From assembly GCA_964649535.1 (NCBI GenBank), contig CAZYTF010000001.1:1521-65520 (forward strand): 64,000 nucleotides of DNA, in the 5' to 3' direction. The notes under the pieces are model-generated. The model ran no database searches. It was not told where the DNA came from and saw nothing but the letters and a program-made list of their open reading frames with translations. Numbering within the stretch: the first letter of the stretch is position 1; each line of letters opens with the position of its first letter. Below, piece by piece: positions 9,103 to 36,383 of this stretch. This stretch comes from an uncultured Candidatus Saccharibacteria bacterium (GTDB lineage: Bacteria; Patescibacteriota; Minisyncoccia; Phycocordibacterales; UBA918). A program made the position numbers and the translations under genes.

Positions 9103-9118
9103 TTGTATCTTCACAAAT

Positions 9119-9361: not shown

Positions 9362-9441
9362 ATAATTGGTTTCTTTAGTGGCGCTATCGTACCATAGTCC
9401 TTTGATTCTGCAAGCCTTTTGCAGTAGTATAGTGCTTACTT

Positions 9442-10279: not shown

Positions 10280-10690
10280 ATGGCAACAATAAATCAATTA
10301 ACAAAACGAAGTCGAAAAGACAAATCAACTAAGTCAAAGGTTGGTGCGCTTCAAGCGGGTTTTAACTCAATTAAAAACCGTACAAACGAATACAACTCTC
10401 CGTTCAAACGAGGAGTGTGTACTCGAGTGACTACAAAGACTCCACGTAAGCCGAACTCTGCGATTCGAAAGATTGCACGTGTTCGACTTTCAAACGGTCA
10501 GGAAATCACAGCGTACATCCCAGGTATCGGCCATACTCTACAGGAACACTCTGTTGTGCTTGTGCGAGGAGGACGCGTGAAGGACATTGGTGTGAACTAT
10601 ACTGTTGTACGCGGTAAATACGATGCGACTGGTGTTGATGCTCGACGACAGGGGCGCTCACGTTACGGCGCGAAAATGCCAAAGGAGTAA
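10280..10690 (+). CDS. rpsL: 30S ribosomal protein S12
   Basis: ATINQL...RGVCTRV...[17 protein letters not shown]...IPGIGH...VRGGRVKD. Confidence 0.95.
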
Positions 10691-11001
10691 TCCTTTAGAA
10701 AGCAGACCGCTTTCAAACAACATTACAAATAGTTTATATTCGCTACAGATAGTAGACGCGACTCAAGCTCCGGCTTCGGAGTCAAACTATGCGAAGAATG
10801 AAAATATGATTTTGTCATACTTCTCATTTCAATCGCTACTAGCTAGCAATTACAGCAGGGTGCAGCGACAGTCAAAGTTTGAGATTTTTTAATCTCTTAC
10901 AGAGACTGTATACCTTGTCGACATTTTTTAAAAAATATCAGGCAAGGTCTTGCGAAAGTCCCATGGACTTTCTCACGCTCCGCTTTTAACAAAAATAAGT
11001 C

Positions 11002-11475
11002 ATGCGACGACCAATTAAAAAACGAAACGTTGTACAGCCTGACATCAAGTTCGGTTCAGTAGACGTTGAACGACTCATCAACTACGTGATGCTTCGCGGA
11101 CAAAAGGAAACTGCACGAAAGATTGTGTATTCTGCGTTTGAAGAAATTAAAAATGCAAAGGAAGGCGGCGGCGACCCACTTGAAATCTTTGAGACAGCAC
11201 TTAAAAATGCTGGACCACAGATGGAGGTACGTTCACGACGTGTTGGTGGTGCAAACTACCAGGTTCCTCGTGAAGTTCGCCCAGAGCGACGTCATGCACT
11301 AGCGCTTCGATGGATTATCGCAGCAGCTCGTGGACACAAGGGAATCCCAATGCACAAAGCGCTTTCCAACGAACTTATGCTTGCAGCTAAGGAAGAAGGA
11401 AATGCAGTGAAGAAGAAGGAGGATACGCACAAGATGGCTGAAGCCAACCGTGCGTTCGCACACTTTGCCTGGTAA
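11002..11475 (+). CDS. rpsG: 30S ribosomal protein S7
   Basis: 157 aa. [15 protein letters not shown]...[14 protein letters not shown]. Confidence 0.95.
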
Positions 11476-11713
11476 CAGACATTTTCTTTGCGATACTGCG
11501 TTAAATGGCCCGAAAATTTGTTCACCGTACGTTACGTACGGCTCACAAATTTTCGGGCTTTTTGACTTGTGACCTAATTTTCAAAGAGCAAAGCGTTTAT
11601 GAAAATAGAAATGCCCTTGTGGTGCTGCCTTTGAAAAACTCAGTTACCATGTTTGCAATTTTTGCTTAAATTAGGCATGCTAGCAATAGTTTGGCATAAG
11701 GGAGAAGAGTATA

Positions 11714-12529
11714 ATGGATGATACCGAAGTCTTCAGATTATCTTTCTTGTTTCCTCATGAAACCAGAGAACAGTTCCCCACAATTACACTTACCTTCAAG
11801 GAGTCACTTTTAAAACCCTTGTTGGAATGGTTTGAAAAAAGAAACACGCATTCTGAATTTTTAGCAGCAACTAAAAAATACCTGGCTGATGATGCCGAAT
11901 TCCAAGAATTGGAAGCAGATTTGTTTGGCAATTCATCGTTTGGATATGGTCGTACTGTTTCTGTCATGATAAGTGGTGATCAGATCACTCTAGGAATCAT
12001 GATAATGAGTAGTAAATACAGTCAGCATTCGGGTCTCATGCTGCATTATATTCTGAACTTTCTCCAAGGCAACCATGAGCCAGCAATGTTTTTGAGTAAT
12101 AGAAAGCAACGCATAAGTCTCTACACCGCAGCTTCGCTAGGGGAAGTTCGGAAAGCTCATGCAGTCGCAGGTTTTATAGGTAAAGAGGTAATCAAGTGGC
12201 TTAGCACTTACACTGAGTCTAGTCCAGATGGAATGCCGTTGCCTGCAGTTGTACGAGATGCGATGCAGAATTCGTGGCACTTCTGTTCCATGAGCCATGA
12301 AGGTCAAGCTATGCCTGATGAATGTCGAGCTTTAGTGACTGGAGATGGACGGTTCTTTTTTGGTTGTTTTGGAGACGCTACGGACTTGGCTATCTATCCA
12401 GATTTAGATTACCAAAAAGGACGCGAGTTCGCAGAGTTTAGTTGTCATAATTTGGATGCCGCTGAACAACAATTGGCGCTCGTGTCTGGCTTAGCTATGT
12501 TGTATAGATTGGTAGAAGAAGATGCTTGA
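11714..12529 (+). CDS. Hypothetical protein
   Basis: 271 aa with no recognisable motif. It is the first gene of the block that separates rpsG from fusA. Confidence 0.45.
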   Translation: MDDTEVFRLSFLFPHETREQFPTITLTFKESLLKPLLEWFEKRNTHSEFLAATKKYLADDAEFQELEADLFGNSSFGYGRTVSVMISGDQITLGIMIMSSKYSQHSGLMLHYILNFLQGNHEPAMFLSNRKQRISLYTAASLGEVRKAHAVAGFIGKEVIKWLSTYTESSPDGMPLPAVVRDAMQNSWHFCSMSHEGQAMPDECRALVTGDGRFFFGCFGDATDLAIYPDLDYQKGREFAEFSCHNLDAAEQQLALVSGLAMLYRLVEEDA

Positions 12530-12585
12530 AGGCAGTCTCTCAAGACTGCCTTTTCTTTTTGCATTAATATCGTACTATTCAACCC

Positions 12586-13020
12586 ATGAACATCACTTTT
12601 ATCGGCATGAGTGGAGCAGGGAAGAGCTATACAGGGAAACGCTATGCGCGGGAGCATGAGATGGATTTTATTGATATCGACAAGGAGATGGAACAAGAGT
12701 ACGGGAAGCCACTGCAGGACATTCTCGATGAACTCGGCGATAAAGTTTTTTTACAAAAGCAGGAGGAACAAGTGCTCGCACTTGAAGGTCTCGATAACAC
12801 TGTCATCTCTCCCGGCGGAAGCGTCGTCTACACAGAACGAGCGATGGAGTTCCTGAAAGCAAACTCAAAAATCATCTACCTCGACGTACCACTTACCGTC
12901 ATCAAAAGTCGCATCAACACAACTAGTCGAGGAATTGTAGGGATTCAAGATAAGACGTTCAACGAACTTTACAAAGAACGTATAAAACTCTACAAAAAAT
13001 GGGCAGATGAGACAGGGTAG
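12586..13020 (+). CDS. aroK: Shikimate kinase-like P-loop kinase
   Basis: Walker A GMSGAGKS, DID, ISPGGSVV (matches ISTGGG of AroK) and a lid region. Confidence 0.65.
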   Translation: MNITFIGMSGAGKSYTGKRYAREHEMDFIDIDKEMEQEYGKPLQDILDELGDKVFLQKQEEQVLALEGLDNTVISPGGSVVYTERAMEFLKANSKIIYLDVPLTVIKSRINTTSRGIVGIQDKTFNELYKERIKLYKKWADETG

Positions 13021-13292
13021 AATTATTTTACTAAACAAAAGTCTACACGTGATATGCAGTACCACATTACTTTTTCCAGTACTACGAGCAGTTCGTTTGA
13101 ACTTCATGCAATAGTATTGCTCAGAAAGCAGCAGATTGAGAAGGGTGAAGGAACATATACGTAATCACTGAAATTATATTCTCGAATGACAAAATTTTTT
13201 CTAACTAAACGAAGGAATTTTGTACTCTGGCAACTACCGAGAATTCTTTAGAGGCTAGCCGAAGAAAATGATTAGTATTGTAAGATATAAAT

Positions 13293-13601
13293 ATGAAAAA
13301 AATTTCAATGCACCTACACGAAATACCATTTCGAGCTATCGAACGTGGTGAGAAAAAAATTGAAGTTCGGTTGTTTGATGAAAAACGGCAGGCTATTTCT
13401 GTAGGTGATGTTATTGAGTTTTTGTTGCGACCAGACAATACTAAGAAAATAGAAAAAAAGATTGTCGCACTACATCGATTCCCTACATTTGCTGATTTTT
13501 ATAATGTATACCCAGCAGAGTTAAGTATCTCAGATGCTCGCGATTACTATTCATCAGAAGATGAACAAAGGTATGGTGTGCTTGCTGTTGAACTTGGATA
13601 A
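13293..13601 (+). CDS. ASCH (PUA-like) domain protein
   Basis: 102 aa. IEVRLFDEKRQAISVGDVIEF fits the ASCH beta-barrel pattern. Confidence 0.5.
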   Translation: MKKISMHLHEIPFRAIERGEKKIEVRLFDEKRQAISVGDVIEFLLRPDNTKKIEKKIVALHRFPTFADFYNVYPAELSISDARDYYSSEDEQRYGVLAVELG

Positions 13602-13699
13602 AAAAACCTCGTTTGTGTAGCTGACAGGGGAGTCATTACTGGACAATAAAATTTGCTTGATTTAGTTTGAACTTTCAAAACATAAACATAAAAAGTTGG

Positions 13700-14737
13700 T
13701 TACTGGTATGTTGTGTTGAGTGATTCAATTCCTTTTACGAGTCCTAAAAATATTTGTTCTTTTGTTTCTTCTGACCATAAGTTGTCAGGTCCTCTTGGGT
13801 CGAGTTTGCGAGAATGTAGTCTTGTTCCGTCCGCTTCGTAGCGCCACCGCTCAAAGGCAGGTCTAATGTCGTTTATAGGCATAGTGATAAGTACCAATTC
13901 ATCAACGTGTGCTTCATGGAGTGCTGTGCTCCGGACACGGTTAAGCTGTCGTTCCTTACGTTCTGTTGCTCCGGTGTTCATTGTAAACTGGATGCCGATA
14001 TGACTTTGTTGTTTTGGCTCGTCAACCTTTACGCCACGTCGTGTATTTGCAACAGTAATAATGAAATCAATTTTGTGCTCGACATCTTCATATACATCGA
14101 CCTCCGCCACTGAAAAAGGCAGGTCCGCATCGAACATTTTCTTTGTTAAAAATGAAAGAAGCATTTTTTCAGCAAGTATGCCTGTTGGCATAGTTTCTAG
14201 ATTAAAATTTACTTCCTCGATGCGCTCATATGTATCACGCTTTCGGTCGTCTGACAGCCTGTTCACTTTTCCGAGCTGCACAAGTTGATTGTCATACTGT
14301 GCTGCCACTATTTTACGTACTTGATTTGACATAATTTTCTTTTGGAACTCTGCGGGGACGGATTGGTCAAATTTCCACCAAAAACCCCACGTATGAGCAG
14401 CTAGTATTTCTCCAATGCTAAGCGTGATTTTGTCACCACCCTTAGTGTGGGTGACAAAGGTGTTGTCGTCACGATATTGTAATTCCCATGCTCCAGGCTG
14501 CTCTTCAAATGCACGCTCTCGTTGGTCGCTTACAGCCTTTACCTCTTTTGACCAAAACTTTTTTCGCCATCTTTTAAGGTTTTTAACAAAATCTAGCTTC
14601 TGTACCTGTAATTCAAGAATGAGGTCGCGAGTGTCTTTATCTACAGTGCGTTCAATAAGTTCAAAAGCTTCTTGATCTCCTATAGTGCCTGCTGATTCCT
14701 GATCTTTCTTAAGATAAGTTTCAAACTTTTCTTTCAT
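13700..14737 (-). CDS. Hypothetical 345-aa protein with a possible PD-(D/E)xK-like segment
   Basis: No family recognised. The segment AEVDVYEDVEHKIDFIITV has a D..ExK arrangement followed by a hydrophobic strand. Confidence 0.45.
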   Translation of the reverse strand: MKEKFETYLKKDQESAGTIGDQEAFELIERTVDKDTRDLILELQVQKLDFVKNLKRWRKKFWSKEVKAVSDQRERAFEEQPGAWELQYRDDNTFVTHTKGGDKITLSIGEILAAHTWGFWWKFDQSVPAEFQKKIMSNQVRKIVAAQYDNQLVQLGKVNRLSDDRKRDTYERIEEVNFNLETMPTGILAEKMLLSFLTKKMFDADLPFSVAEVDVYEDVEHKIDFIITVANTRRGVKVDEPKQQSHIGIQFTMNTGATERKERQLNRVRSTALHEAHVDELVLITMPINDIRPAFERWRYEADGTRLHSRKLDPRGPDNLWSEETKEQIFLGLVKGIESLNTTYQ

Positions 14738-14935
14738 ATGAATAGTATACGTTATGGTGGAACGTCTTGATGTAAAAGGATTATTTGTGTTTACACTATA
14801 GTAAAATAAGCCCCATAAAAATAGTTGGGACTCTACTACTTTTGTCTGTTGTCGTGCAAAGAAGTTGCTATGTTCCAGACACGAGCTCTTGTATTGCCAA
14901 CTGGTTTTGCAAGTGTTGATTCGAGTACACTTGCT

Positions 14936-15118
14936 TTACGCAGTTTTTTTCAAAATCTGATTGAGGTTACTCGGGTGGATATCTTTATTGAAATATCCAA
15001 GCAACCAACTGCGTATTTGCAGTTCTCGCAGATTCGGTTGCCGATACAGGACAGTAATTATCATTGAGGTATTCTGCTTGTCATTTAAACCCAGTGCGTC
15101 AAATACAAGGTTGAGCAT
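14936..15118 (-). CDS. Small protein (60 aa), unknown function
   Basis: Very strong ribosome-binding site (TTAAGGAGGAGATATG). Confidence 0.4.
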   Translation of the reverse strand: MLNLVFDALGLNDKQNTSMIITVLYRQPNLRELQIRSWLLGYFNKDIHPSNLNQILKKTA

Positions 15119-15186
15119 ATCTCCTCCTTAAAGAGCTTTGGCATTTTCGTTCATAATACCTTTCTTGTCACTATAGCGAAAAATAC

Positions 15187-15762
15187 TTAAAGTGCAATTT
15201 TCTTAAGCATATTTTCTAAAAGTACTTTTGTTTCCTCAATGTTGTATGTATCAGTATCTATACAGACACCGTTGGTTTGTGAATATTTTCTTAAGACATC
15301 AACTTCGTCTTCTGCGGGATTTTGTTCGAGGACTGTGAACGCCTCGCGAGTGATTGGCGTCTTCCCTTGTCGTTCGAGGCGCCCGTTGTAACGAATGAAA
15401 CGTGTGTCGGGGGATGCGTCGATAAAAATAAACATGAGTTTTTCTCCTCGTGCATTAGCAACGTCAGTAAGTGTCTTGAGGTCTACTTTGCGACGATTTC
15501 CCTCGATGACGAGGTGTGGCGCAGCAAGAGCCTTGGCTCTTGCTGCGATTTCTTTTGCAAGCCAATCTTCGCCACGTTCTTCTCTGAGTGTTACAAAGAG
15601 ATTTTGCAGGGTTGTTTTATCAGTTGCGTCTAGTCTGTGTTTTGTAGCGATGTCTGCAAGTATCTCTGAATAGCGCATGTACGCTGCGCCGTATTCACCT
15701 GTAAGTACTTCGGTTACTGTTGTTTTGCCGCTGGCAGTCGGTCCAGCAATTCCAAATAACAT
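15187..15762 (-). CDS. P-loop nucleotide/nucleoside kinase-like protein
   Basis: Walker A GIAGPTASGKTT at the N-terminus and a Walker B-like IFIDAS. Size and layout are those of a small-molecule kinase. Confidence 0.55.
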   Translation of the reverse strand: MLFGIAGPTASGKTTVTEVLTGEYGAAYMRYSEILADIATKHRLDATDKTTLQNLFVTLREERGEDWLAKEIAARAKALAAPHLVIEGNRRKVDLKTLTDVANARGEKLMFIFIDASPDTRFIRYNGRLERQGKTPITREAFTVLEQNPAEDEVDVLRKYSQTNGVCIDTDTYNIEETKVLLENMLKKIAL

Positions 15763-15858
15763 AGTATATATATCATAATATAAAAAAATGTCAGAGACGA
15801 CTTTGAAAATATCTCCAAATTTTTATACTTAACACAATTTCTTTTACACTCCTTCTTT

Positions 15859-16869
15859 CTATGAGGGTCGCTTCCCAAACTTTCGTGCAAGTTTGTAGAG
15901 TGCAAAAAGGATTCCAAAAAGAATGGTGAGTTGCACAAAAATAGCATGACCTAAATAGAAAGATACGCTCGCAAGTGTTGCGGTACATAGTGCACTCCAA
16001 ATATTCTTACTTACTAAAATTATTGAATTAAGAAAACTTCCTTCCTTTATTTCCGGCATATCGGGAGTTTCAATTGCAATGCCGTTATTTGTAGTTCTTG
16101 TGATTTGTCCGAACCCATCTTCGTTAACAAAAATTTCTGGGGGAGTGGTTTTTTCGGTCTCTGCTTCCTGACGAACTTCGCGGTAGGTATCTATATTTTG
16201 TTTGGTGGTATTCAAGATGTCCGTAAAGTTTGAAAGTGCAGTATATGCGGGGCTTGGCGTAAGGTATTGTTCAAATCCACGATTTTCTTTAGTTCTGGTT
16301 GCATCGGCGATGCCACCATCGTCGGTGACGTCAGTGTTTGCTTGATTTATGTTGTCTTGTTTTTCATTAAATACGAGTGGATTTGTATTATTTTCTTCTT
16401 CAACAGTGTCACTTATGCCGTCCCCATCATCGTCAATGTCATCTACGTTCCCAACACCATCTTTGTCAGTATCGTAGTCGACAAAAATTATGTCTTCTGC
16501 CAGAGCAGACGTAACTTCCACAGCTTTTGTTGAGGAGCCAACTTTTGAAAGTTCTGTGCGGGAAAGTGAAGCGGAAAGTGTGTGTTCACCATGGTCTGGT
16601 ATCCAATCAGTCCAACTCTCGACAATTCTTCCGTCAAGCGCTGACACTTCCGCCCGCCCTATAACCTTATTATTGTCGTAGAATTCGACACGTCCTGTCA
16701 GGTCCTCTCCTGTGTTGTTGCGAATGGCAACATAAATACGCACTGGTTCATTTGTAAAGATTTTTTCCTGAGAATACCAAAGCCCGTTAATAAGTCCCGC
16801 ATTAAATTCTTGCGCGAACGTACATGGTGTCAGTAGTGTAATGAGTAAAAATAAAAGCACCCACTTCAT
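15859..16869 (-). CDS. Secreted/anchored protein with thrombospondin type-3-like Ca-binding repeats
   Basis: Signal peptide MKWVLLFLLITLLTPCTFA, D-rich repeats DTDKDGVGNVDDIDDDGDGISD, and a C-terminal TM helix plus basic tail. Confidence 0.55.
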   Translation of the reverse strand: MKWVLLFLLITLLTPCTFAQEFNAGLINGLWYSQEKIFTNEPVRIYVAIRNNTGEDLTGRVEFYDNNKVIGRAEVSALDGRIVESWTDWIPDHGEHTLSASLSRTELSKVGSSTKAVEVTSALAEDIIFVDYDTDKDGVGNVDDIDDDGDGISDTVEEENNTNPLVFNEKQDNINQANTDVTDDGGIADATRTKENRGFEQYLTPSPAYTALSNFTDILNTTKQNIDTYREVRQEAETEKTTPPEIFVNEDGFGQITRTTNNGIAIETPDMPEIKEGSFLNSIILVSKNIWSALCTATLASVSFYLGHAIFVQLTILFGILFALYKLARKFGKRPS

Positions 16870-16943
16870 AGATGCATTATATCTTATTGTATATATAAAG
16901 TTTGGTCCGGCGCACTATTCGCGCCGGACCGTGTCGGCCGATC

Positions 16944-17330
16944 CTAAACCAGATTAAGGATTCTTTGACTGGCCATGAGGGGACTGATGAATTCCCCGTG
17001 GCAGTCACACCCAATCTCGTGTGCCACATTCTTGGCTTCTTGCGATCCTCTCACATATCCGAGTGCCTCCATGACACCTCCGACAGTGCCGTCAGTGTAG
17101 ATCCCCATGATTTCGAGCTGTTGTGCCATTATCTCGAAAACTGTTTCCGCAACTGGGAGGTCGGCTACTTTTTCTTTTGTCCAGCCTTCAATTCTTTGGA
17201 TTCCTCCAAGATTCTTCATATGAAGTCGTCCGACCACATCGGCTAAATATCTGATCATATCATCCCGGCTTATGCCGGGTATTCCGCTTTCGGCCGCTAA
17301 TGATCCCGTTGGCATCATGTTCATCGACAT
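16944..17330 (-). CDS. Hypothetical protein
   Basis: 128 aa with a CDCHGE cluster. GC-rich 10-bp hairpin downstream (16903-16932). Confidence 0.4.
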   Translation of the reverse strand: MSMNMMPTGSLAAESGIPGISRDDMIRYLADVVGRLHMKNLGGIQRIEGWTKEKVADLPVAETVFEIMAQQLEIMGIYTDGTVGGVMEALGYVRGSQEAKNVAHEIGCDCHGEFISPLMASQRILNLV

Positions 17331-17489
17331 CTCCTCTTTCTAGGGCATCTGGCTTCCTCCAATGGGGCCAGTCCCAAGGAGGATAGTAGTGCTAGTTTGA
17401 TAAGCTGTCAAATAAATCTGACAAGCTTTTCACTACACAAGGAATGGCAGTTTGATTGCATCGCTCACGTAGTGTAAGCTACGAACCTT

Positions 17490-18968
17490 ATGTCTCAACA
17501 AGGACTTATCTCATTTCATGGTGTTTCGTATGAACACGATGCGACCAAGCCGATTCTCATCGATGCTAATTTTTCTATACGGCGTGGAGCAAAGTTTACA
17601 CTTATGGGCCAAAATGGTGCCGGCAAATCTACACTCTTCGCACTTATCACTGGCACATTAAAGCCAGATGAGGGAGATATTAATATTGCGCCACGCACGA
17701 GTATCGCGGTATCTCGACAAGTCATTCCACGCGATGAGCTCGAACTCACCATGCGAGCTTTTTTTGAAAAGTGTTTCACAGAGAAGATATACGACATTGA
17801 TCCTCGTATTGAGGCGGTGCTTAAGGTGGTAAACCTCTCGCCTGCTAATGCTGAAGTAGCTGCTACATTTAAAGACAGAATCATTGGAAGTTTTTCAGGC
17901 GGCCAACAAGCTCGTCTTTTGTTGGCAAGTGCACTCATTCAGAATCCTGACGTATTACTGCTTGATGAGCCGACAAATAACCTCGACACTGCAGGGATTG
18001 CCCACCTTACAGAATTTTTGAAAGAATATAGAAAGACAGTAATTGTTATTTCCCATGATGCGGATTTTCTCAATGCTTTTACTCATGGTGTGTTGTATCT
18101 CAATGTGCAGAACAGAATCGTAGAACAATATGAGGGTAACTATCACAGCGTATTGAAGGAAATTAAATTGCGTGTAGAAAAGGAGCAGCGAAAAAATGCT
18201 CAGCTTGAGAAGGAAATTCAAGCAAATAAAGATAAATCAAACTTTTTTGCAAATAAGGGAGGTAATATGCGACTCGTCGCTAAACGCATGCGTGAGAAAG
18301 TGGATGAGTATGAAGACAATAAAGTCGATGTGCGTAAGGAGGACAGAACTATTCGTCCCTTTACAATTCCTGTACAAAAAGGCACTCCGCTCAATGTCCT
18401 TCAGCTCAATTCATACAAAGTCATTCGCAATCATAGTCCAAAAGATGTGCCTTGTGATATTACGCTAAAACGCGGACAGCATATGCGAATCATTGGTCCT
18501 AATGGCATTGGGAAGACAACACTTTTAGAATCACTTGCGTCTGGACATGCTGATGGTGAGAAAGTTGCTGACGGGGTTGTGATTGGCTACTATCGACAAG
18601 ATTTTTCAAACCTTGATTTTAATCAAACTGTAGCAGAGTGCCTCATGTCAGTAATGGATAAAAAAATTGAACAAGATATGCGTTCAGCTGCGGCGGGGTT
18701 CCTAATAAATAGCGACATTATTAAAACAAAAATTGGTCTTCTTTCTGAAGGTCAGAAAGGGCTTGTTGCATTTGCGCGATTGGTACTTTTGAAGCCGGGT
18801 CTTTTAATTCTTGATGAGCCGACTAACCACATCAATTTCAGGCATATCCCAGTGATTGCTGAAGCACTCCATACGTTTGAAGGAACGATGATGCTCGTAA
18901 GTCATGTTCCAGAATTTGTCGAACAGGTCAGAATCGATGAGACACTTGATTTAGATAAAAAGAAATAA
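17490..18968 (+). CDS. ABC-F family ATPase (tandem ABC domains, no TM domain)
   Basis: Two Walker A (GQNGAGKST, GPNGIGKTT), two signature (LSGGQQ, LSEGQK) and two Walker B (LLLDEPTN, LILDEPTN) motifs, separated by a charged linker. Confidence 0.85.
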   Translation: MSQQGLISFHGVSYEHDATKPILIDANFSIRRGAKFTLMGQNGAGKSTLFALITGTLKPDEGDINIAPRTSIAVSRQVIPRDELELTMRAFFEKCFTEKIYDIDPRIEAVLKVVNLSPANAEVAATFKDRIIGSFSGGQQARLLLASALIQNPDVLLLDEPTNNLDTAGIAHLTEFLKEYRKTVIVISHDADFLNAFTHGVLYLNVQNRIVEQYEGNYHSVLKEIKLRVEKEQRKNAQLEKEIQANKDKSNFFANKGGNMRLVAKRMREKVDEYEDNKVDVRKEDRTIRPFTIPVQKGTPLNVLQLNSYKVIRNHSPKDVPCDITLKRGQHMRIIGPNGIGKTTLLESLASGHADGEKVADGVVIGYYRQDFSNLDFNQTVAECLMSVMDKKIEQDMRSAAAGFLINSDIIKTKIGLLSEGQKGLVAFARLVLLKPGLLILDEPTNHINFRHIPVIAEALHTFEGTMMLVSHVPEFVEQVRIDETLDLDKKK

Positions 18969-18976
18969 ATAAAAAT

Positions 18977-19008
18977 GCCTCGCCCAAAATTGGGCGAGGT
19001 CTTTTTTT
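18977..19008 (+). terminator. Intrinsic terminator
   Basis: cctcgccc-aaaatt-gggcgagg followed by a T-run. Confidence 0.6.
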
Positions 19009-19015
19009 GAATTGG

Positions 19016-19873
19016 TTACACGCGAGTAATGCTTTCGTAAAACGCACGTTTCGCAGTTTCGTCCCACTCCAACTTAAGAAGTGGATTGCGGGTGTTGTCT
19101 GCACCCATGAATGGGATACAAGAACCGGAGAATCGTACGAAGGTTCTGAAACAGTCCTTAGTTGCAAAGCCGGGTTCATGCGGACAAAATGCATTGAGCA
19201 AATGAAATCTATAGGGTTGTGGTTCGTGTCGTTCTAAACCTATACTCTGCTCATTCAGAGCTTTGAATAAACCCTTCTTGTCTGCAGGTAAAGCTTCGAC
19301 ATCAAACGAATGGCATACAAATCGCGTTGGTATGGCATTTGTGATAGCCAGCTGGTGTTGCGCAACTTGAGGAAAGATTGATGATTTTTGGAATCCGTCC
19401 AAATGAATTCCAGTCTTCCGCTGTGATGTATCTTTTTTAACGTATGACTGCTGAATGGTTAGGTACAAATATTGTCCTTGCAAGTATGGGTTAAATTTTT
19501 CTTCAATACTCAAAATTGAGTCAATGATGTTAGAAAAACAATTCAAGACAACATCTGGAATGTGCACAATTCCATGAGGTACTTTGATGGGCATATCTTC
19601 AATATAGAGACCAGTCTCACTAAAGTGTTTTCTGACAAACGTTTCAGTAGCTGGCCCTGCCCACACCTGACTGCTACTCTCTCTCTTGTGTGAAAAAAGC
19701 GGCAGCTGTGACTTCGGGCGAGCTGGGCTGGCGAGCGAGTTTTGAATTTCTGTATTCACACTTGGAAAAATGTAAGGAAGGTGGGGGATAGCAAGCTTTC
19801 GCTGATCCCAGATGACTCCTTTTTTAAAATCACTAAGTGTATGCTTCCGATATTTATCCATCTGTTTCTCCAT
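19016..19873 (-). CDS. Hypothetical protein
   Basis: 285 aa. Scattered His/Asp motifs (TGIHLDGF, HIPDV) but no confident family. Confidence 0.45.
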   Translation of the reverse strand: MEKQMDKYRKHTLSDFKKGVIWDQRKLAIPHLPYIFPSVNTEIQNSLASPARPKSQLPLFSHKRESSSQVWAGPATETFVRKHFSETGLYIEDMPIKVPHGIVHIPDVVLNCFSNIIDSILSIEEKFNPYLQGQYLYLTIQQSYVKKDTSQRKTGIHLDGFQKSSIFPQVAQHQLAITNAIPTRFVCHSFDVEALPADKKGLFKALNEQSIGLERHEPQPYRFHLLNAFCPHEPGFATKDCFRTFVRFSGSCIPFMGADNTRNPLLKLEWDETAKRAFYESITRV

Positions 19874-20225
19874 CTTTGTAAAAGATCTTTGTAGTGGATT
19901 ATGCAGGAATACGTATATTTATCAAGCTTTTTGAATATGGTCACTCATTTTGGAGGTTTTGTTGCTAACTATAATTTTACCTACTGGAAAGTTTTTTTGT
20001 ATATAGCTATTTGTTATGTACATAGGTATTGTATAATTAAAGGACTTATACATCTAAGTACATACCAATGCGAATTTAATTTTTTGGAGAAATATTTAGT
20101 AGCGTAATCCACAATGTATGGCTGAGCGAATTGCCCACAAAAAAGAAAAGAAGAAACCAAAGAAGGACAAGACAGTGAAGAAATAAATATAAAGGCAGCA
20201 CTTCGGTGCTGCTTTTATATTTACA

Positions 20226-21521
20226 ATGTGCTGTACATCTGCGACTATGTTCTCTATGTCTACAAAAAAACTATGTGTGGGTTTGATTATTTACATCCTT
20301 GTTTTTCCTGGGAATGTTGCGTTGGCAAAAAATGATTCAGATACATTAGAATTACTCACGCATCAAATCACGGCACTTGAGAAATATATTGCACGCACGA
20401 ACCTTCGCATGGGGCTTTCTGAAGCCGTAGCTCTTCCTCGTGAAGACATGCGAGATGTAATAAAAAATGGAGTTGCTTGGCTTGTGGAAGCACAAGAGGG
20501 GACTGGTCATTTTGCATATGAATATTTGCCGTACAGTGATGAGTATAAGTATGGCGACAATATCGTGCGGCAGGCAGGTGCGCTGTACGCACTTACCGAA
20601 GTTGCTCGACGAGATGCTGTGGGAGATATGCATCGGTCTGCTGCTATCGAGGAAGCAGTAGTTTTTTTTGAAAATGCATCACTTGCACACACTTATGAAG
20701 GGAAGGAGGTTCGATGTCTTGCGAGAAACAAGGACAGTAAAACGTGCATCCTTGGCGCAACTGCTCTTGCGCTTGCGGGAGTACTTGGCTATGTTGAATC
20801 TGACCCAGCAAAAGCTAGTACGTACGAACATCTGATAGAAGGGTACATTTCATTTATCATGGCTTCCAAAAAAGAAGCCGCCGGTTTCCGTGATCAGTAT
20901 CGCATAGGGACGGGTTTTGTAGGTGATAAGGAGTCTTCGTTCTCAAACGGCGAAGCCTTGTTGGCTCTTGTTCGTTACTATCAGTATAGTCCGGACCAAG
21001 AAGTAAAAAGAATTATTGATGAAACTTTCTCTTATCTTGAAGTAATACCGTTTGATACCCCGCTGTACCTTTGGGCAATGGCAGCATTGAAAGACATGCA
21101 TGCACTTTGGCCAAGTGAAAAGTACACAACATATGGTGAGAAATTCACCGCTTGGCGCATGGGGTCGCTTTATAGAAGTCATGGCACCACTAGAAATTAT
21201 TGTGCCTCAACGGAAGGTTTGGCAAGCGCCTATACCCTTATTGAAGACTCTGCTTCAAAGGAGGTTCTAGAGCGTCTGCGAACAGAAATTGATTTTTGGA
21301 ATTTAAAAAATGTTGACTTACAAATTACATCAAATGATCTATACCGATTGGCTACACGCGAAGACGGAACGATCTTTTTGGAATTTGTGCAAAATCTGAA
21401 CAAAAGTAGGGGAGGCTTCTTAACAGCTGAAAACGAACTGACACAAAGAATCGATTTTACGCAACATTGTGTCAGTACCTATGTGCAAACGCTGGTTGAT
21501 ATTGATGGGCAGTTATTATAG
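20226..21521 (+). CDS. Secreted protein, possible alpha/alpha-toroid (prenyltransferase/terpene-cyclase-like repeats)
   Basis: Signal peptide. KNGVAWLVEAQEGTGHF resembles the QW-type repeat motif. Family assignment is low confidence. Confidence 0.45.
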   Translation: MCCTSATMFSMSTKKLCVGLIIYILVFPGNVALAKNDSDTLELLTHQITALEKYIARTNLRMGLSEAVALPREDMRDVIKNGVAWLVEAQEGTGHFAYEYLPYSDEYKYGDNIVRQAGALYALTEVARRDAVGDMHRSAAIEEAVVFFENASLAHTYEGKEVRCLARNKDSKTCILGATALALAGVLGYVESDPAKASTYEHLIEGYISFIMASKKEAAGFRDQYRIGTGFVGDKESSFSNGEALLALVRYYQYSPDQEVKRIIDETFSYLEVIPFDTPLYLWAMAALKDMHALWPSEKYTTYGEKFTAWRMGSLYRSHGTTRNYCASTEGLASAYTLIEDSASKEVLERLRTEIDFWNLKNVDLQITSNDLYRLATREDGTIFLEFVQNLNKSRGGFLTAENELTQRIDFTQHCVSTYVQTLVDIDGQLL

Positions 21522-21676
21522 GGACTTACGTTTATAAAAAATTGTAGCTAAAGAATGTTGCCCATTTGTTATATAAATTATGGCAGGGTGTAGGTTTCAA
21601 GCATGCAAATGGCCTAAACAAAACTAGCAAAATCAAGTACCTTGCATTGCATAGTACCTTGTGATAATATTTTGCT

Positions 21677-22087
21677 ATGGCAGATTCGTCACAAGATAGG
21701 AATCCTGGCAGCAATAACGAGCCAGTAATAAAAGACGTTTTGAAATACAATGTCGAAAATGCGCAGTCACAAATGCGAAAGGGTTTTTTGGAATTCCCTG
21801 TTCTTTTGATAATCGGTGCAAAGCCGACATATGCTCCAGATATTCTGAAGCAGCTTAAAAAGGCAAATTTATTAGTAGTAGAGGGTACATTATATCCTCT
21901 CTTATCGAGACTTAAGCGGCATGGCCTTGTTGGGTATGAATGGGAAGAGAGTAAAAGTGGCCCACCACGAAAAATGTACACCGTAACAGTCGAAGGAAAA
22001 GAAGTATTGCAGCAACTAGATGCGTCATGGAAAACTCTAGACACATCAGTAAATACACTAATCAAGCATTATGAAAAAGGTAATTAA
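21677..22087 (+). CDS. PadR-family transcriptional regulator
   Basis: GTLYPLLSRLKRHGLV...PRKMYTVT matches the PadR winged-helix signature. Confidence 0.8.
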   Translation: MADSSQDRNPGSNNEPVIKDVLKYNVENAQSQMRKGFLEFPVLLIIGAKPTYAPDILKQLKKANLLVVEGTLYPLLSRLKRHGLVGYEWEESKSGPPRKMYTVTVEGKEVLQQLDASWKTLDTSVNTLIKHYEKGN

Positions 22088-23306
22088 CATAACACTCGGA
22101 GGAATAGTTTTTGCTATAGAGCAAGATGCGTACGATACACTCGCTTCCTACCTTGAAGATATTAAAAAGAATCTTACTCTGACTGATGACGCCCAGGAAA
22201 TTGTGGGGGACATTGAAAGTGCAATTGCTGAGAAGTTTTCTGTACGCAAGCGTAATGAAAGGGTGGCAGTTACTGATGGGGATGTTGCGGCTGTGGTTTC
22301 TGAAATGGGCAGCCCTGCTGACTTTCGTGAAAGCGAAGATGCTGACACCACAAGTTCAGTGCATGCACAGGTTTCGTCAGACGCGACTGTTAAAAAGCGA
22401 CTGTATCGTGATACTGACGACGCTATCGTTGCTGGTGTTGCTTCGGGGCTCGCCAAGTATTTCGACATCGACCCTGTAATTGTGAGACTTGCTTTTGTTA
22501 TCTCAATTTTCTTCAATGGACTGGGCATCCTTGCATACAGTATCTTGTGGTTAGTTATTCCGAAGGCAGAAACCACTGCACAAAAATACGCTATGCGAGG
22601 TGAGAAGGTGACACTTAAAGAAATCACTGAACAAGTAAAAAAAAATTTGAAAGGTCTTGATGAAGTGGATATGAGTAGTGCAAAAAGTGCATGGACTCCA
22701 ATTCGAAATTTTCTCAACAAAGTATTTATTGTGCTCGGAATTATTGTGCTGGCCTTTGTAAGGATGCTTCGATATCTGGGAGGCTTCTTGGTTCTGATGG
22801 TCGGTGCTTTTTCACTCGCAGCACTAGTCTCTGTATATAGTGTTGTGTTGTTATCTGATCAAATATTTATACCTACTGAAGCTCAGACTGCTGTTAGCAT
22901 TATGGTCAGCAGCGTTTCAGGTATTCTAGCCATCGCCTCTTCTTTTGTTGTTTCTGCTATTCCGTTACTCTTTTTGATTTTGATTGGTGGAAGTTTGCTT
23001 GTAAAACGAAACTTATGTACTGCTTCGAAAACTATTACACTTGTAGTGGTATGGATTATCGCTATCGTACTTGCGGTTACAGCTTCAGCTCTGCAGGTGG
23101 AAAAGGTTATGCATGCTTTGAGTACTGATAGTTTTAAACATGACGAGTACCAAGTCTACATTAATCTAGGAGAAAGTGATGAAAATGAAGACTCAGTTGA
23201 GTTGCGGTGGGGGGATGAAGAAATGTCTATTGTATCTACAGAGTCACAAGATTTGCCTGATGCTCTAGCTTCAGAAGAAAGTTCAATTGAGTTCGATGCG
23301 CAATAA
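22071..23306 (+). CDS. PspC-domain membrane protein (DUF1700-like N-terminus)
   Basis: LYRDTDDAIVAGVASGLAKYFDIDPVIVRLAFV is the PspC domain. Followed by multiple TM helices and an acidic C-terminus. Overlaps PadR, an operon-like layout. Confidence 0.7.
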   Translation: MKKVINITLGGIVFAIEQDAYDTLASYLEDIKKNLTLTDDAQEIVGDIESAIAEKFSVRKRNERVAVTDGDVAAVVSEMGSPADFRESEDADTTSSVHAQVSSDATVKKRLYRDTDDAIVAGVASGLAKYFDIDPVIVRLAFVISIFFNGLGILAYSILWLVIPKAETTAQKYAMRGEKVTLKEITEQVKKNLKGLDEVDMSSAKSAWTPIRNFLNKVFIVLGIIVLAFVRMLRYLGGFLVLMVGAFSLAALVSVYSVVLLSDQIFIPTEAQTAVSIMVSSVSGILAIASSFVVSAIPLLFLILIGGSLLVKRNLCTASKTITLVVVWIIAIVLAVTASALQVEKVMHALSTDSFKHDEYQVYINLGESDENEDSVELRWGDEEMSIVSTESQDLPDALASEESSIEFDAQ

Positions 23307-23391
23307 AATTACAGGATAAAAATGTGTAGATTAAATCTACACATTGACTTATTTAGGTTGCAATTTGGCCATAAAGGGGGATAATTTAGAC

Positions 23392-23871
23392 ATGAGGTTA
23401 TTATCAAACATTTTGTTTGTCGTGAGTGCTATATTTATTTTGGCTTGCGTTGGGTTGTATTTATTTAGTACTGCCCAAATTGCAGAAGCTCCAGTGATGG
23501 ATGTAGGTAGTGTAGACACAGCTGAGTCAGTAGTCATGGTTTCAGTCAATTCTTTTGAAGAGTGTGCAGCAGTTGGTAATCCTGTAATGATGTCTAGTCC
23601 AGCGCAGTGTCGCCACAATGGTGTGCTTTATACTGAGGAAGCTGTAGTTTCAGCTGAGCCGCAAGAAGGTGAAACTGTTTGTTCTCCTGAATCGAAGTTA
23701 GCCGAAGTTTGCACAATGGAATATGCGCCAGTGTGTGGTTTGGTGCAGGTACAGTGCGTGACTACACCGTGTAACCATGTTCCGGAAACTTTTTCAAACG
23801 ACTGCATGGCGTGTGCACAAGAAAATGTTATTTCGTATAAAGAAGGTGAGTGTTCACTAGAAGTTCAATAA
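23392..23871 (+). CDS. Secreted Cys-rich protein with a Kazal-like domain
   Basis: Signal/TM anchor. CTMEYAPVCG...TFSNDCMAC matches the Kazal Cys spacing and the Y-x-PVCG and N-x-C motifs. AAAGGGGG ribosome-binding site. Confidence 0.55.
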   Translation: MRLLSNILFVVSAIFILACVGLYLFSTAQIAEAPVMDVGSVDTAESVVMVSVNSFEECAAVGNPVMMSSPAQCRHNGVLYTEEAVVSAEPQEGETVCSPESKLAEVCTMEYAPVCGLVQVQCVTTPCNHVPETFSNDCMACAQENVISYKEGECSLEVQ

Positions 23872-24197
23872 TTATGTTTGCAATAATAAAAGGTTATATA
23901 GCGTATATAAAAGATAATCCTGAGGGCTTTTGGTTTAAACGAAAAGCATACGGCTATGGTTGGACGCCAGCAACAATAGAAGGTTGGCTTGTGACACTCG
24001 GTTCTTTTCTCTTTATACTCGGCATTGTGTTGCGAGCTGACCGTCTGGAAATTAAAGAAAGTGAAGCGCTTATACAAGTAGTTATCCCGATGTTTACGGT
24101 GATAGGGTTTCTTATTTTGATTTGTTTAAAGACAGGAGAGTCTCCAAAGTGGCAGTGGAAATTGCCAAAAAAATATTTCGAAGACACTAAAGATTAG
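23850..24197 (+). CDS. Small membrane protein, unknown function
   Basis: Two predicted TM helices. The start codon is ambiguous. Confidence 0.35.
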   Translation: MFTRSSIIMFAIIKGYIAYIKDNPEGFWFKRKAYGYGWTPATIEGWLVTLGSFLFILGIVLRADRLEIKESEALIQVVIPMFTVIGFLILICLKTGESPKWQWKLPKKYFEDTKD

Positions 24198-26275
24198 ACT
24201 GCTTGCCATTTTTTTAAAAATTTTGATAGTACAAGTGAGGCAACAAAGATGACTACCGAAAGACCAAGATATTTTGGGTCGAGGGTATTAAATGATATTC
24301 CATCCATTTTGAATGATTCAATATCAAGTGATGCGCCGATTGAAACAAAAGTTGCGGTGCCCAAAAGAATCCCCACAAAAGTCGCTGCAATAAATGGAAC
24401 AAATGCAGTCTTTAGTATCCCCGCAATATAACTCACACCATCAAATGGCAGGAAGATAAGTCGCATGGTTAGTATTGAAATGAATGTATTTTTTTGGAGA
24501 GAGGTAACCCAATTCCCAATGATTGAATCTTCTGGAGATAATCCCTTTCCAAAAAAACGCCCAACGGCATACGCAACACCTGAAGATAAAGTTGCTGCGA
24601 GTATGGTAAGTACAGTACCGCCCCAGAAGCCAAAAAATATACCCGAAAGTATCGTGAGTGCTGTGGCAGGGAAGAAGGTAAGTGGTCGTAGCGCATATAC
24701 CAGCACATAAAGCAGTGGTCCCCAGATGGTCATGGTGATGAAGTCAAAAATCATCAGCGCTGTTTCTGTCGTACCCATTCCATGTGCAGTTTTATAAATA
24801 TAAAGCTGCAAAAGACCCATAAGCCATAGAGCTCCTACAAGAATTTTAGGAGTGTGTTTTTTGAGTAGATATAAAATGTCTGATTTTAAATTTGAAATTT
24901 GCTGGGCAAAGAAATGATCACCTGCTTTCTTGACGACAAGTGAGTACGTTGGATATGCATACATAATGTTGCGCAAACTCCACATGGAAATCTTTTTATC
25001 TAGAGCAAGTGTAAAAATTGATATGAGTTCACCTGCGGATGGTCCGATTATGTTCGCTCCAAGCACGGCCCCATTAAGCCTCTTTGCATACACGACGAGA
25101 AGCCCATCTGTGTCGCTATCTGTTTGAGCTCTATCGTTTTCTAGGAAAGGAACCTCAATGCGCATGACTTCTTTTTCCGTATATTTTTGAAGTGCGTCTT
25201 GGTATGACATGCCGACTTGTGCGATTTCTGGTTCAGTATAGGTTACTTTTGGAACTGCTTTTTTATTGTCTGCACGTAGGAATCCCTTTGAGACAACATG
25301 TGTAACAACTTGCCGTGCGCTATCGTTTGCCGTGTGCGTAAATTTTAAACGTTGTGCAATATCACCAACAGCGTATACATGTTTATTTGAGGTGCGGTGC
25401 TGTTTGTCGACTTGGATGCCGTATGTATCTGCTGCAATTCCTGCGGTGTCTAATCCTTTTGGGAAATTGGGCAAACGACCAACTGCATAGAGGATTTTGT
25501 CATACGCGACACGTACTTCAGTGAGTGTCGATTCGTTACCGTTTTCCTTGATCTCAAATAGGGCTTGTTTGTTTTCGACTTCTTTTATAAACGCATTGAG
25601 GTGTATGGTTATTCCTAAATTGGTGAAAACTTTTTGGATAATAGGCGATACTGCTTCGTCTTCGAGTCGCGCAAAACGGTCGTTTACATCGGCAATGGTT
25701 ACGTTACTCCCAAGCATTGCAAACGCTTGTCCCATCTCCATGCCAATCGGTCCTGCACCTACGATGAGTAATCGTTCGGGAACGGTTTCTAAATCAAAGA
25801 TATTTTGATTTGTGAGAATGTCGTTCTGGCTAATTCCAGGGACGTTAATCATTCGTGGGCTTGAGCCGGTCGCAATGACGGCATGTTTGTAACCAAACTC
25901 TGATTCTTCAATTTTGATAGTGCATGGTGCAACAAATTCCGCTTCTCCAAATTCAACGTCAATACCTTGAGCACGAAACGCCTCAGGAGTTTCGTGCTCC
26001 AAAATACCTTCAACCTTACTTCGTACATATACAAAAGCATTCGTGCGGTATGCTTCATTTTTTTTGTTTTTACCAGAGATAGTGAGTGCACTATGGAATG
26101 ATTTTGCATGATGTAGTAATGCTTTAGACGGTATACACCCGGAGTTGGTGCATTCTCCTCCCATATGTTCTTGTTCTACAAGCAATGTTTTTCTTCCAAT
26201 TTTAGCGAAACCGGTAGCGGCAGTAAGTCCGCCTGAGCCTGCACCAATCACCACAACATCGTAGTCTTTTTTCAT
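24194..26275 (-). CDS. Fusion protein: N-terminal FAD/NAD(P) pyridine-nucleotide-disulfide oxidoreductase (lipoamide/mercuric-reductase-like) plus C-terminal DedA/TVP38 (SNARE-associated) membrane domain
   Basis: DYDVVVIGAGSGG and the redox-active GGECTNSGCIPSK disulfide motif at the N-terminus. The C-terminal roughly 230 aa are polytopic with the DedA-like segment FPATALTILSGIFFG. Confidence 0.8.
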   Translation of the reverse strand: MKKDYDVVVIGAGSGGLTAATGFAKIGRKTLLVEQEHMGGECTNSGCIPSKALLHHAKSFHSALTISGKNKKNEAYRTNAFVYVRSKVEGILEHETPEAFRAQGIDVEFGEAEFVAPCTIKIEESEFGYKHAVIATGSSPRMINVPGISQNDILTNQNIFDLETVPERLLIVGAGPIGMEMGQAFAMLGSNVTIADVNDRFARLEDEAVSPIIQKVFTNLGITIHLNAFIKEVENKQALFEIKENGNESTLTEVRVAYDKILYAVGRLPNFPKGLDTAGIAADTYGIQVDKQHRTSNKHVYAVGDIAQRLKFTHTANDSARQVVTHVVSKGFLRADNKKAVPKVTYTEPEIAQVGMSYQDALQKYTEKEVMRIEVPFLENDRAQTDSDTDGLLVVYAKRLNGAVLGANIIGPSAGELISIFTLALDKKISMWSLRNIMYAYPTYSLVVKKAGDHFFAQQISNLKSDILYLLKKHTPKILVGALWLMGLLQLYIYKTAHGMGTTETALMIFDFITMTIWGPLLYVLVYALRPLTFFPATALTILSGIFFGFWGGTVLTILAATLSSGVAYAVGRFFGKGLSPEDSIIGNWVTSLQKNTFISILTMRLIFLPFDGVSYIAGILKTAFVPFIAATFVGILLGTATFVSIGASLDIESFKMDGISFNTLDPKYLGLSVVIFVASLVLSKFLKKWQAV

Positions 26276-26291
26276 GCATATAGTATATCGT

Positions 26292-26370
26292 ACGTGCTTT
26301 ACTTTTGTTTTTTTAAAAAAGAAAATACCTCATGTGTATTCTCTTTGAGAAATGTACATGAGGTATTGGA
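26292..26370 (-). terminator. 12-bp inverted repeat plus U-run downstream of the gene at 26404..26871
   Basis: aatacctcatgt ... acatgaggtatt, with an A/T run beyond it on the minus strand. Confidence 0.4.
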
Positions 26371-26403
26371 CTGAAAGGCGTCCCCTGAAAGCCTCTCAAA
26401 TTT

Positions 26404-26871
26404 TCAACTACCCTCTGGTGATTTCACCAGCGTTCGGGGCGATGTCATTAACCCTGCTCTCAGGGTTTTATTGAAAGCATCTTGATCCGCTGCTCGACGC
26501 AAGCCATAATTAATGTAGAGTAGGTACTCTGTTTTTTCGGCAATATTTACGCTATTGAGGGTCAGTTTTCCCTCTTTCGCAACAAACGAGAACTCACAAA
26601 GTTTTTTTGGGCAAATCCCGGCAAAGTCAAACTGGACATCTTCGAAGAGGATGAATGGCAATTCAGCATCGTCTCCGATTGTTGCAATTGTTTGCATTTC
26701 GATTCGTTCGTCAGCCAAGGAGGTATTCCCTTGCGGGACTTGTTCTGCAAGGCTGATGTCAACAATTTTCCTGCTATCACCTCCCACGCTTCCTTGGTCA
26801 GCAAGGACCGGAGACAGATTTGCGAAAAAAATGACAGCAGCGAGGGCAGGTGTGATGAACTTACTACGCAT
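26404..26871 (-). CDS. Secreted hypothetical protein
   Basis: Signal peptide MRSKFITPALAAVIFFANLSPVLA. No family recognised. Confidence 0.45.
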   Translation of the reverse strand: MRSKFITPALAAVIFFANLSPVLADQGSVGGDSRKIVDISLAEQVPQGNTSLADERIEMQTIATIGDDAELPFILFEDVQFDFAGICPKKLCEFSFVAKEGKLTLNSVNIAEKTEYLLYINYGLRRAADQDAFNKTLRAGLMTSPRTLVKSPEGS

Positions 26872-27144
26872 TGGATTTTTCTCCGTGTAGCGCTGAGGGG
26901 GTTCGTAGGTACCCCTCAATATACCTGTAGCCCACCATAACATGTTTTATTTGAAAGTCATTAAATGTCCAAAATCACTAGATTTTGAGCTAAAGGCTGT
27001 TGCTAAAGGGTGTGTAATACCGTATAGTACTGGCCAACAAGCCTTACGGCTGTTTTCTATTTGCGTGAGTGGACAGCCTTGGCGTCAGCATTTGCACCAA
27101 TAGGGAGGTTATACATATATATTAGCTAAATATTATAAAAAATT

Positions 27145-29350: not shown

Positions 29351-29381
29351 AAAAAGTGCGAGGGCTAAGCCCTTGCACTTT
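29351..29381 (+). terminator. Intrinsic terminator after fusA
   Basis: 11-bp stem agtgcgagggc/gcccttgcact followed by a T-run. Confidence 0.6.
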
Positions 29382-29388
29382 TTACATA

Positions 29389-36365: not shown

Positions 36366-36383
36366 GAGTAGTGTGTTACACAA

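Follow-up and report, generated by a model that had tools for sequence, protein, structure and literature searches.

A 15.7-kb break between rpsG and fusA in the str operon of a Patescibacteria bacterium, probably inherited vertically and still changing within its clade

Breaks in the bacterial ribosomal supercluster have been explained by invasion-separation, in which the cluster is opened by inserted genes that are neither mobility genes nor long-distance transfers (PMC6735719; Brandis 2021, PMC8046335). In a survey of 305 genomes, only two genomes with a single EF-G carried fusA outside the str operon. E. coli has an S7 autoregulatory RNA within its rpsL-rpsG spacer (Fu et al. 2013, PMC3616713). 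Here we describe the str genes rpsL, rpsG, fusA and tuf in a stretch of 64,000 nucleotides, hereafter the window (assembly GCA_964649535.1, contig CAZYTF010000001.1, positions 1,521 to 65,520), in which rpsG and fusA are separated by a large block of accessory genes. This block likely represents a lineage-specific opening of the str operon that was passed on vertically within a Patescibacteria (Paceibacteria-type) clade and continues to change.

Gene identities were assigned from Pfam profile matches on the window proteins. The genes rpsL (ribosomal protein S12, 10280-10690; PF00164, S12, 106 bits), rpsG (ribosomal protein S7, 11002-11475; PF00177, S7, 189 bits), fusA (EF-G, 27145-29331; all five EF-G domains) and tuf (EF-Tu, 29921-31114) are all found on the plus strand in the canonical order. 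A promoter-like site (TTGCAA...TATAGT) is predicted from sequence 39 nt 5' of rpsL. The initial annotation placed rpsG and fusA 15.7 kb apart, and the distance is exactly that: 15,669 bp (11476-27144) separate positions 11475 and 27145, and hold about 17 called genes, 7 of which are on the minus strand. The contiguity typical of the str operon is absent, and the 15.7-kb gap features several terminator-like hairpins. Co-transcription of rpsG and fusA across the block is very unlikely, because seven block genes face the opposite way.

The window proteins were mapped onto a comparison set of 80 genome loci fetched around EF-G and 80 metagenome loci fetched around S7. In the 109 loci holding both genes, the median distance between rpsG and fusA is 137 bp (interquartile range 84-555 bp), and the largest is 7.4 kb. 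In four more loci fusA is not within 10 kb of rpsG, and in L172, a locus added later, the gap is at least 18.5 kb long. The gap in the window is real and extreme, yet other genomes share such an opening.

In a neighbour-joining tree built on the S12 and S7 proteins, all loci with a measured gap of at least 2.2 kb fall in one clade. The basal branches of this clade have gaps of 268 bp (L107) and 422 bp (L098). Gaps range from 2.2 to 7.4 kb in L005-L007 and L104, measure 3.3 kb in L092 and reach at least 10 kb in L093 and L105. Along the tree, the gap enlarges progressively from 268-422 bp to 2-7 kb, and then to 15.7 kb in the window and at least 18.5 kb in L172. The two genes are mostly 9-200 bp apart in more distant Patescibacteria.

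A set of six genes, the order and strand of which are kept in the clade, makes up the backbone of the block. The set includes a P-loop nucleotide-kinase-like protein (15187-15762, minus strand; AAA_17 and Cytidylate_kin matches), a surface protein (15859-16869, minus strand), an ABC-F family ATPase with two ABC_tran domains and no membrane domain (17490-18968, plus strand), the hypothetical protein g285 (19016-19873, minus strand), the small membrane protein g115, and a fusion of a FAD/NAD disulfide oxidoreductase with a DedA/VTT membrane domain (24194-26275, minus strand; Pyr_redox_2 and VTT/DedA matches in Pfam, and NCBIfam). Homologues of the ABC-F protein (72-80% identity) are found in the gap of L088, L092, L093, L105, L108 and L172. 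The gap of L093, L105, L108 and L172 also holds homologues of the oxidoreductase-DedA fusion (55-61% identity), with their orientation unchanged. Other backbone proteins are 37-50% identical to their window counterparts. The P-loop kinase has a homologue (49% identity) directly 3' of rpsG in L092, the surface protein has homologues (37-48%) in the gap of L005-L007, L096, L104 and L108, and g115 has homologues (41-45%) in the gap of L088, L093 and L103. The protein g285 has only 4 homologues; the one in L172 (50% identity) adjoins the ABC-F gene as in the window.

The arrangement can be followed from locus to locus. The order is rpsG, kinase (minus strand), ABC-F (plus strand) and fusA in L092, and rpsG, surface protein (minus strand), ABC-F and oxidoreductase-DedA (minus strand) in L108. 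ABC-F, the small membrane protein and oxidoreductase-DedA (minus strand) follow one another in L093 and L105. In L172, the EF-G of which is 85% identical to that of the window, a g345-like gene precedes ABC-F, g285, oxidoreductase-DedA and fusA. In the sister subclade (L005-L007, L096 and L104), the surface-protein gene is the only one in common with the window block. In the same loci, the core comparators S7 and M50 protease are 76-89% and 58-61% identical, respectively, and set against these values the backbone identities are consistent with vertical co-divergence.

The remaining content of the gap is variable. The description of the region in the initial annotation as a hypervariable locus at a conserved junction proved apt, since the gene content of the gap differs in every pair of relatives examined. 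A module of three genes, encoding g431, a PadR regulator and a PspC-domain membrane protein (20226-23306, plus strand), occurs in L166 and L167 in the same order (58, 80 and 60% identity) but elsewhere on the chromosome, with ribonucleotide reductase genes on one side and SPFH/M10/SIMPL genes on the other. In L168, g431 is found near secE-nusG-rplK. A second cluster, involved in nicotinamide adenine dinucleotide (NAD) salvage, maps outside of the block in the window (55236-64000) and encodes a NrtR-like Nudix regulator, PRTase-Nudix, PRPP-synthetase-like, a GNAT-NAD kinase fusion, NMNAT-like and NAPRTase proteins. Homologues of this cluster are located within the rpsG/fusA gap in L099 (S7 81% identical) and L003 (EF-G 88% identical). 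In the window, the cluster has a higher GC content (0.46-0.50) and the lowest tetranucleotide correlation (0.71). Judged by these distributions, several cargo genes are native to the lineage and are not long-distance transfers. Genes evidently move into and out of the rpsG/fusA junction from elsewhere in the same kind of genome, because the g431 trio and the NAD-salvage cluster occupy different places in relatives.

The block lies exactly between two predicted signals, a hairpin element called R2 at the rpsG stop codon (11476-11585) and a promoter-like site upstream of fusA (27000-27028). The short-gap loci L107 and L098 carry both signals, the R2 hairpin and the equivalent of the fusA promoter, within spacers of 268-422 bp. 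The str operon was probably split at the transcriptional level before the gap grew, because these loci already carry both border signals. We infer the following course of events. In the ancestor, rpsL-rpsG and fusA-tuf would have become separate transcription units, with R2 at the rpsG stop codon and a dedicated promoter and leader in front of fusA. The few dozen bases between terminator and promoter would then have provided a neutral landing site, into which native genes may have moved stepwise by intragenomic rearrangement. Some arrivals (P-loop kinase, surface protein, ABC-F, g285, small membrane protein and oxidoreductase-DedA) would have been retained as the backbone, and others would be transient, such as g431-PadR-PspC in the window and the NAD-salvage cluster in L099 and L003.

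Several observations weigh against this reconstruction. The tree was obtained by neighbour-joining only, from two short proteins, and many relatives are short metagenome contigs, so that several gap sizes are lower bounds. No homologue of g271, the shikimate-kinase-like (SKI-like) protein, the ASCH protein, g128 or g179 is found in the gap of any relative; these five genes may have been acquired recently, because none has a homologue in the relatives' gaps. Two block proteins, g285 and ASCH, show weak matches to phage families. As to the mechanism of gene movement, an IS3-like transposase (HTH_Tnp_2 and rve) is encoded directly 5' of g431-PadR-PspC in L166 (7664-8994) and L167 (5764-7094), and is only suggestive as a vehicle for the module; no transposase is found in the window block. 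Lastly, counts from generic promoter and terminator scans were not above those of shuffled sequences, and the terminator and promoters are sequence predictions; only sites backed by conservation were used.

One may ask whether the core of the block has been recruited for function. According to this alternative, ABC-F, perhaps with its neighbours, would be selected to sit with fusA-tuf, and the core of the block would be an extended translation-factor locus rather than neutral cargo. Members of the ABC-F family bind the ribosome, and the protein of the window scores 311 bits with NCBIfam NF000355, under the cut-off of 380, its nearest solved chains being PoxtA, YbiT and EttA. Its gene is the most conserved of the gap and is always found on the str strand; in L092 it is located 465 bp 5' of fusA, with only the kinase gene before it. 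In the window and in L172, however, ABC-F is separated from fusA by 8 kb and by genes on the opposite strand, and has its own terminator; in the window, a bidirectional terminator-like hairpin is found between ABC-F and g285 (18964-19013, unstranded). Moreover, the sister subclade (L005-L007 and L104) has an open gap without ABC-F. Recruitment of this kind is a doubtful explanation for the block, which we read as an inherited and still-changing break.

The left border of the block is formed by R2, an extended hairpin of about 110 nt followed by a U-run, which starts from the rpsG stop codon (11476-11585, plus strand). Its predicted fold has a minimum free energy of -38.6 kcal/mol (z = -6.5). 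Alignment of 15 orthologous copies supports 33 base pairs, with 91.5% pairing and compensatory changes in 29 of the 33; the observed score was reached in none of 500 shuffles, and slid controls showed 37-51% pairing. All 33 pairs covary when 32 copies are considered, although this alignment was fitted to the model and the count hence leans towards structure. A second copy in the window (31502-31611, plus strand; cmsearch 62.2 bits, E = 6e-19) lies 5 nt past the stop codon of rpsJ, where it marks the upstream edge of an insert in the rpsJ/rplC junction, and has the loops of the first copy on different stems. The covariance model found no copy inside the block, and one at its edge.

About 20 loci carry R2 at the stop codon of rpsG, and copies are present in L005-L007, L015, L017, L088-L108, L115 and L168. 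In relatives, the element starts -7 to +6 nt from the stop codons of rpsL, rpsG, nusG, nrdA and a probable rpmB. Within one genome, the loops UUCAC or CUCAC and the CGUAC-loop-GUACG element are constant, and the stems vary. The conservation of loops while stems differ and the far lower scores of the reverse strand suggest that R2 is no young mobile repeat but acts as an RNA in a strand-specific manner, for instance in termination, in processing or in the protection of 3' ends. R2 is accordingly a candidate specialised terminator, processing site or 3'-end stabiliser. In scans of the R2 and R1 regions by E-value, Rfam returned only generic hairpin matches far under threshold.

The position of R2 at the upstream edge of two insert-bearing junctions of the window, and the presence of several copies per locus in L168, L089 and L108, could alternatively be taken to mean that insertions at the junctions occupied by R2 are actively driven by R2 itself, acting as a REPIN- or MITE-like recombination or mobile element. 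We judge this quite unlikely. Copies of the same genome differ in their stems but keep their loops, and orthologous copies covary, which is the signature of a functional RNA; every copy is co-oriented with the upstream gene and starts at its stop codon. In addition, no partner recombinase was seen, and no copy of the core motif was found in the viral contigs searched.

The initial annotation took the block for a possible genomic island, which would be a horizontally acquired region integrated between rpsG and fusA. Like a classical island, the block is a large accessory and partly surface-exposed region at a conserved locus, the content of which varies between relatives; several near-orphan genes and the weak PHROG matches of g285 and ASCH would fit this origin. 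In other respects, the comparison fails. Scans with Pfam, NCBIfam, PHROGs and PADLOC revealed no integrase, transposase, phage or defence families among block proteins, and PADLOC and PHROGs detected neither a defence system nor a prophage. No transfer RNA (tRNA) was found in a scan of the whole 64-kb window, nor any Rfam match at the gathering threshold. The flanking direct repeats that the initial annotation proposed to look for did not materialise, as a search for direct and inverted repeats yielded only chance-level pairs, none of which brackets 11476-27144. The composition test speaks against foreign DNA as well: GC content is 0.422 in the block and 0.441 in the core, GC content at third codon positions (GC3) is 0.368 and 0.354, respectively, codon usage correlates with that of non-ribosomal core genes (r = 0.946), and the tetranucleotide profile stays inside the range of the window itself. 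Furthermore, the block is not gained or lost as a single unit: relatives keep the ordered backbone, which is inherited vertically with divergence like that of core genes, and the rest differs gene by gene. Homologues of g431 number more than 290, of which those carrying a name belong to Pacebacteria, Kaiserbacteria or Parcubacteria. The initial annotation conceded that a lineage-wide arrangement with core-like composition would speak for an ancient rearrangement instead, and this is largely the situation encountered, as the backbone order is kept in L092, L093, L105, L108, L172 and L005-L007. The island explanation is already largely refuted, and we regard it as very improbable. An integron cassette array was also considered and rejected: one R2 copy is found at the block edge, with no repeated attC-like sites inside and no integrase.

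An assembly chimera of two unrelated regions, conceivable for a metagenome assembly, is scarcely credible, because the same genes and both junctions, with the interior, are found again in contigs of three independent samples or assemblies (ENA ERZ27315625, ENA ERZ27315639 and Logan SRR7528855) and the architecture is common to relatives; the arrangement is no artefact.

A second conserved element, R1, is located in the enlarged rpsL-rpsG spacer of 311 bp (10729-10834, plus strand), as identified by covariance model and conservation. Its flanks, ATAGTTTATATTCGCTACAGAT and TATGCGAAGAATGA, are invariant. The middle hairpin, which is bulged, is 98.8% paired, with compensatory changes in 4 of 9 pairs and a score reached in none of 500 shuffles. 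Searches with its covariance model returned a single copy at each locus, in every case located between rpsL and rpsG, and R1 is restricted to the clade whose junction has opened; in the window, R1 is single copy, with no similar sequence elsewhere. R1 is a candidate rpsG promoter and S7-responsive leader RNA. Its 3' arm includes the rpsG start codon in L005 and L104, and in the window an apparent relic or duplicate of the rpsG 5' end, ATGCGAAGAATGA, is found in the rpsG leader about 200 nt 5' of the true start. The resemblance of the 3' part of R1 to the rpsG start (ATGCGA...) suggests that the element arose by duplication of that start. A tandem duplication of the initial ~20 nt of rpsG (ATGCGACGACCAATAAAAA) is found immediately 5' of the gene in L007 (7242-7330), possibly a snapshot of how the R1 leader arose.

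At the right border of the block, the predicted and conserved fusA promoter-like site TTGCTA-17-TATAGT is followed by a small GC hairpin and a U-run (27000-27057, plus strand). A sigma-70-like motif (TTGCCG or TTGCTA, N17, TATAGT) with a small GC hairpin is found 120-160 nt 5' of fusA in the window, L003, L005-L007, L092 and L104, and is kept whatever gene lies 5' of it. A bidirectional terminator-like hairpin follows fusA (29351-29383, unstranded; identified from sequence), and a promoter-like site for tuf, TTGCAA-16-TACAAT, is predicted at 29705-29732 (plus strand), followed by a hairpin and a U-run, the whole spanning 29705-29760. The fusA and tuf leaders are alike, as both feature a promoter-like site and, within about 10-15 nt, a short GC hairpin with a U-run. 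This shared architecture is possibly that of an attenuator. The spacer between the two genes also contains a 61-residue hydrophobic open reading frame (ORF) on the minus strand (29434-29619). In the fetched loci, the fusA-tuf gap ranges from 0.05 to 6.7 kb, and is several kb long in some Patescibacteria relatives.

Most proteins attributed to the block in the initial annotation, namely the shikimate-kinase-like, ASCH, ABC-F, PadR, PspC and FAD-oxidoreductase-DedA proteins, are confirmed by Pfam or NCBIfam matches. From the rpsG side, the block starts with g271 (11714-12529, plus strand), a near-orphan hypothetical protein matched by no family. It has only 4 distant homologues (33-36% identity), one of which is encoded next to ftsA/ftsZ in a Paceibacterota genome. 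This is followed by the shikimate-kinase-like P-loop protein (12586-13020, plus strand; Pfam SKI, 94 bits), the ASCH-domain protein (13293-13601, plus strand; Pfam ASCH, 22.7 bits against a cut-off of 21.2; PHROG 19935, E = 2e-17) and the hypothetical protein g345 (13700-14737, minus strand), which matches no family and has a 32%-identical homologue in the L172 gap. Next to the kinase gene, the surface protein bears, besides a signal peptide and a C-terminal anchor, Ig-like and TSP3-like regions, as evidenced by sub-threshold Pfam matches and hydrophobic segments at both ends. The hypothetical protein g128 (16944-17330, minus strand), for which no family was matched, is called as a gene in independent assemblies too.

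Downstream of ABC-F, the weak phage-family match of g285 is to PHROG 1843. The alpha-toroid assignment made for g431 from the sequence is borne out by a structure model with a predicted local distance difference test (pLDDT) score of 91. This secreted protein adopts in the model an (alpha/alpha)6 toroid fold, matched by Foldseek to GH76 and AGE enzymes (template modelling score, TM, 0.59-0.69); PadR and PspC were recognised by Pfam. A search of PDB sequences with g345, g285 and g431 returned nothing useful. The following segment (23344-24197, plus strand) encodes a Cys-rich, membrane-anchored, Kazal-like protein and the backbone protein g115, a small protein with two transmembrane (2-TM) segments, as judged from sub-threshold Pfam matches and hydrophobic segments. 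The TSP3 and Kazal-like labels of the initial annotation thus reflect a weak resemblance that is indeed seen, but the scores are under the Pfam cut-offs (22.9 against 25 bits for TSP3, 18.7 against 21 bits for Kazal). The last gene of the block, divergently oriented with respect to fusA, encodes the hypothetical protein g179 (26404-26943, minus strand), and the g179-fusA junction is found again in the independent contig L002. Like g431 and the surface protein, g179 has a hydrophobic segment at its N-terminus.

Three further junctions of the ribosomal cluster are interrupted in the window. The rpsJ/rplC junction (31497-33793) carries a 116-aa ORF and an AI-2E family transporter gene, the rplB/rpsS junction (36366-37816) carries genes for DUF2103 and 2-TM proteins, both on the minus strand, and the rplE/rpsN junction (41564-43930) carries two SPFH/Band 7 genes. 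The same three junctions hold other inserts in relatives. Promoter-like sites with long leaders are predicted before rpsL, tuf, rplC and rpsS. Upstream of the str genes, rpmB (L28; 9119-9361, minus strand) is located just 5' of the M50 protease gene and rpsL; a plus-strand ORF overlapping rpmB (9086-9397) is probably spurious.

A broader reading of these data, which we put forward only tentatively and hold to be less probable than not, is that this Patescibacteria clade has split the ribosomal supercluster into units of one or a few genes. R2 family members at the stop codons of rpsL, rpsG, rpsJ, nusG, nrdA and other genes would each be joined by a promoter and leader that are new, of which R1 before rpsG and the leader of fusA are examples. 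R2 would terminate, process or stabilise the upstream mRNA, creating as a by-product "safe-harbour" sites for native modules; if true, such sites would account for the hypervariability of the gaps. A gene string that ranks among the most conserved of bacteria can open and long remain a landing site for genes of the organism itself, and the opening is found in a small-genome, presumably slow-growing lineage. Large inserts in the ribosomal protein block affect contig-level checks of marker-gene synteny for metagenome-assembled genomes of this kind. In a phylum about whose gene regulation almost nothing is known, R1 and R2 stand as concrete candidates for new RNAs of the cis-regulatory or terminator type. 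No direct report of interrupted ribosomal operons in Patescibacteria/CPR (Candidate Phyla Radiation), or of a matching RNA motif, emerged from literature searches.

Among known systems, R1 occupies the same position as the E. coli S7 operator (PMC3616713), the rpsL-rpsG spacer. In contrast to the operator, with which it shares no sequence or Rfam similarity, R1 is located in the window ~170 nt 5' of the rpsG start (11002), and S7 binding is only a candidate function. R2 resembles intrinsic (bidirectional) terminators, RNase III hairpins of the phage T7 type and REP/BIME/REPIN elements, as it is an extended hairpin with an A-tract and a U-tract found directly after the stop codons of highly expressed genes. 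It differs from all of these in its length (~110 nt), its four helices, the conserved loops shared behind different genes, stems that covary and are not identical, and the lack of an Rfam family.

The locus as a whole is closest to invasion-separation (PMC6735719, PMC8046335). As in that model, enlargement or full separation comes after a small multigene insertion at a terminator/promoter boundary, the cluster is hit at several of its junctions, and the inserted genes are non-mobility genes that were not acquired by long-distance transfer, a native origin from which g271 and the SKI-like, ASCH, g128 and g179 genes are excepted here. Unlike the described cases, the break occurs within the classical str operon, at rpsG/fusA, and not between operons; the host belongs to Patescibacteria rather than to Proteobacteria or Bacilli, beyond which the model is thereby extended; structured elements specific to the clade (R2 and the fusA leader) are present at the borders; and the gap content is unusually fluid. 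The type of locus is itself of an already known kind, and the RNA elements at its borders, R1 and R2, are its most novel part.

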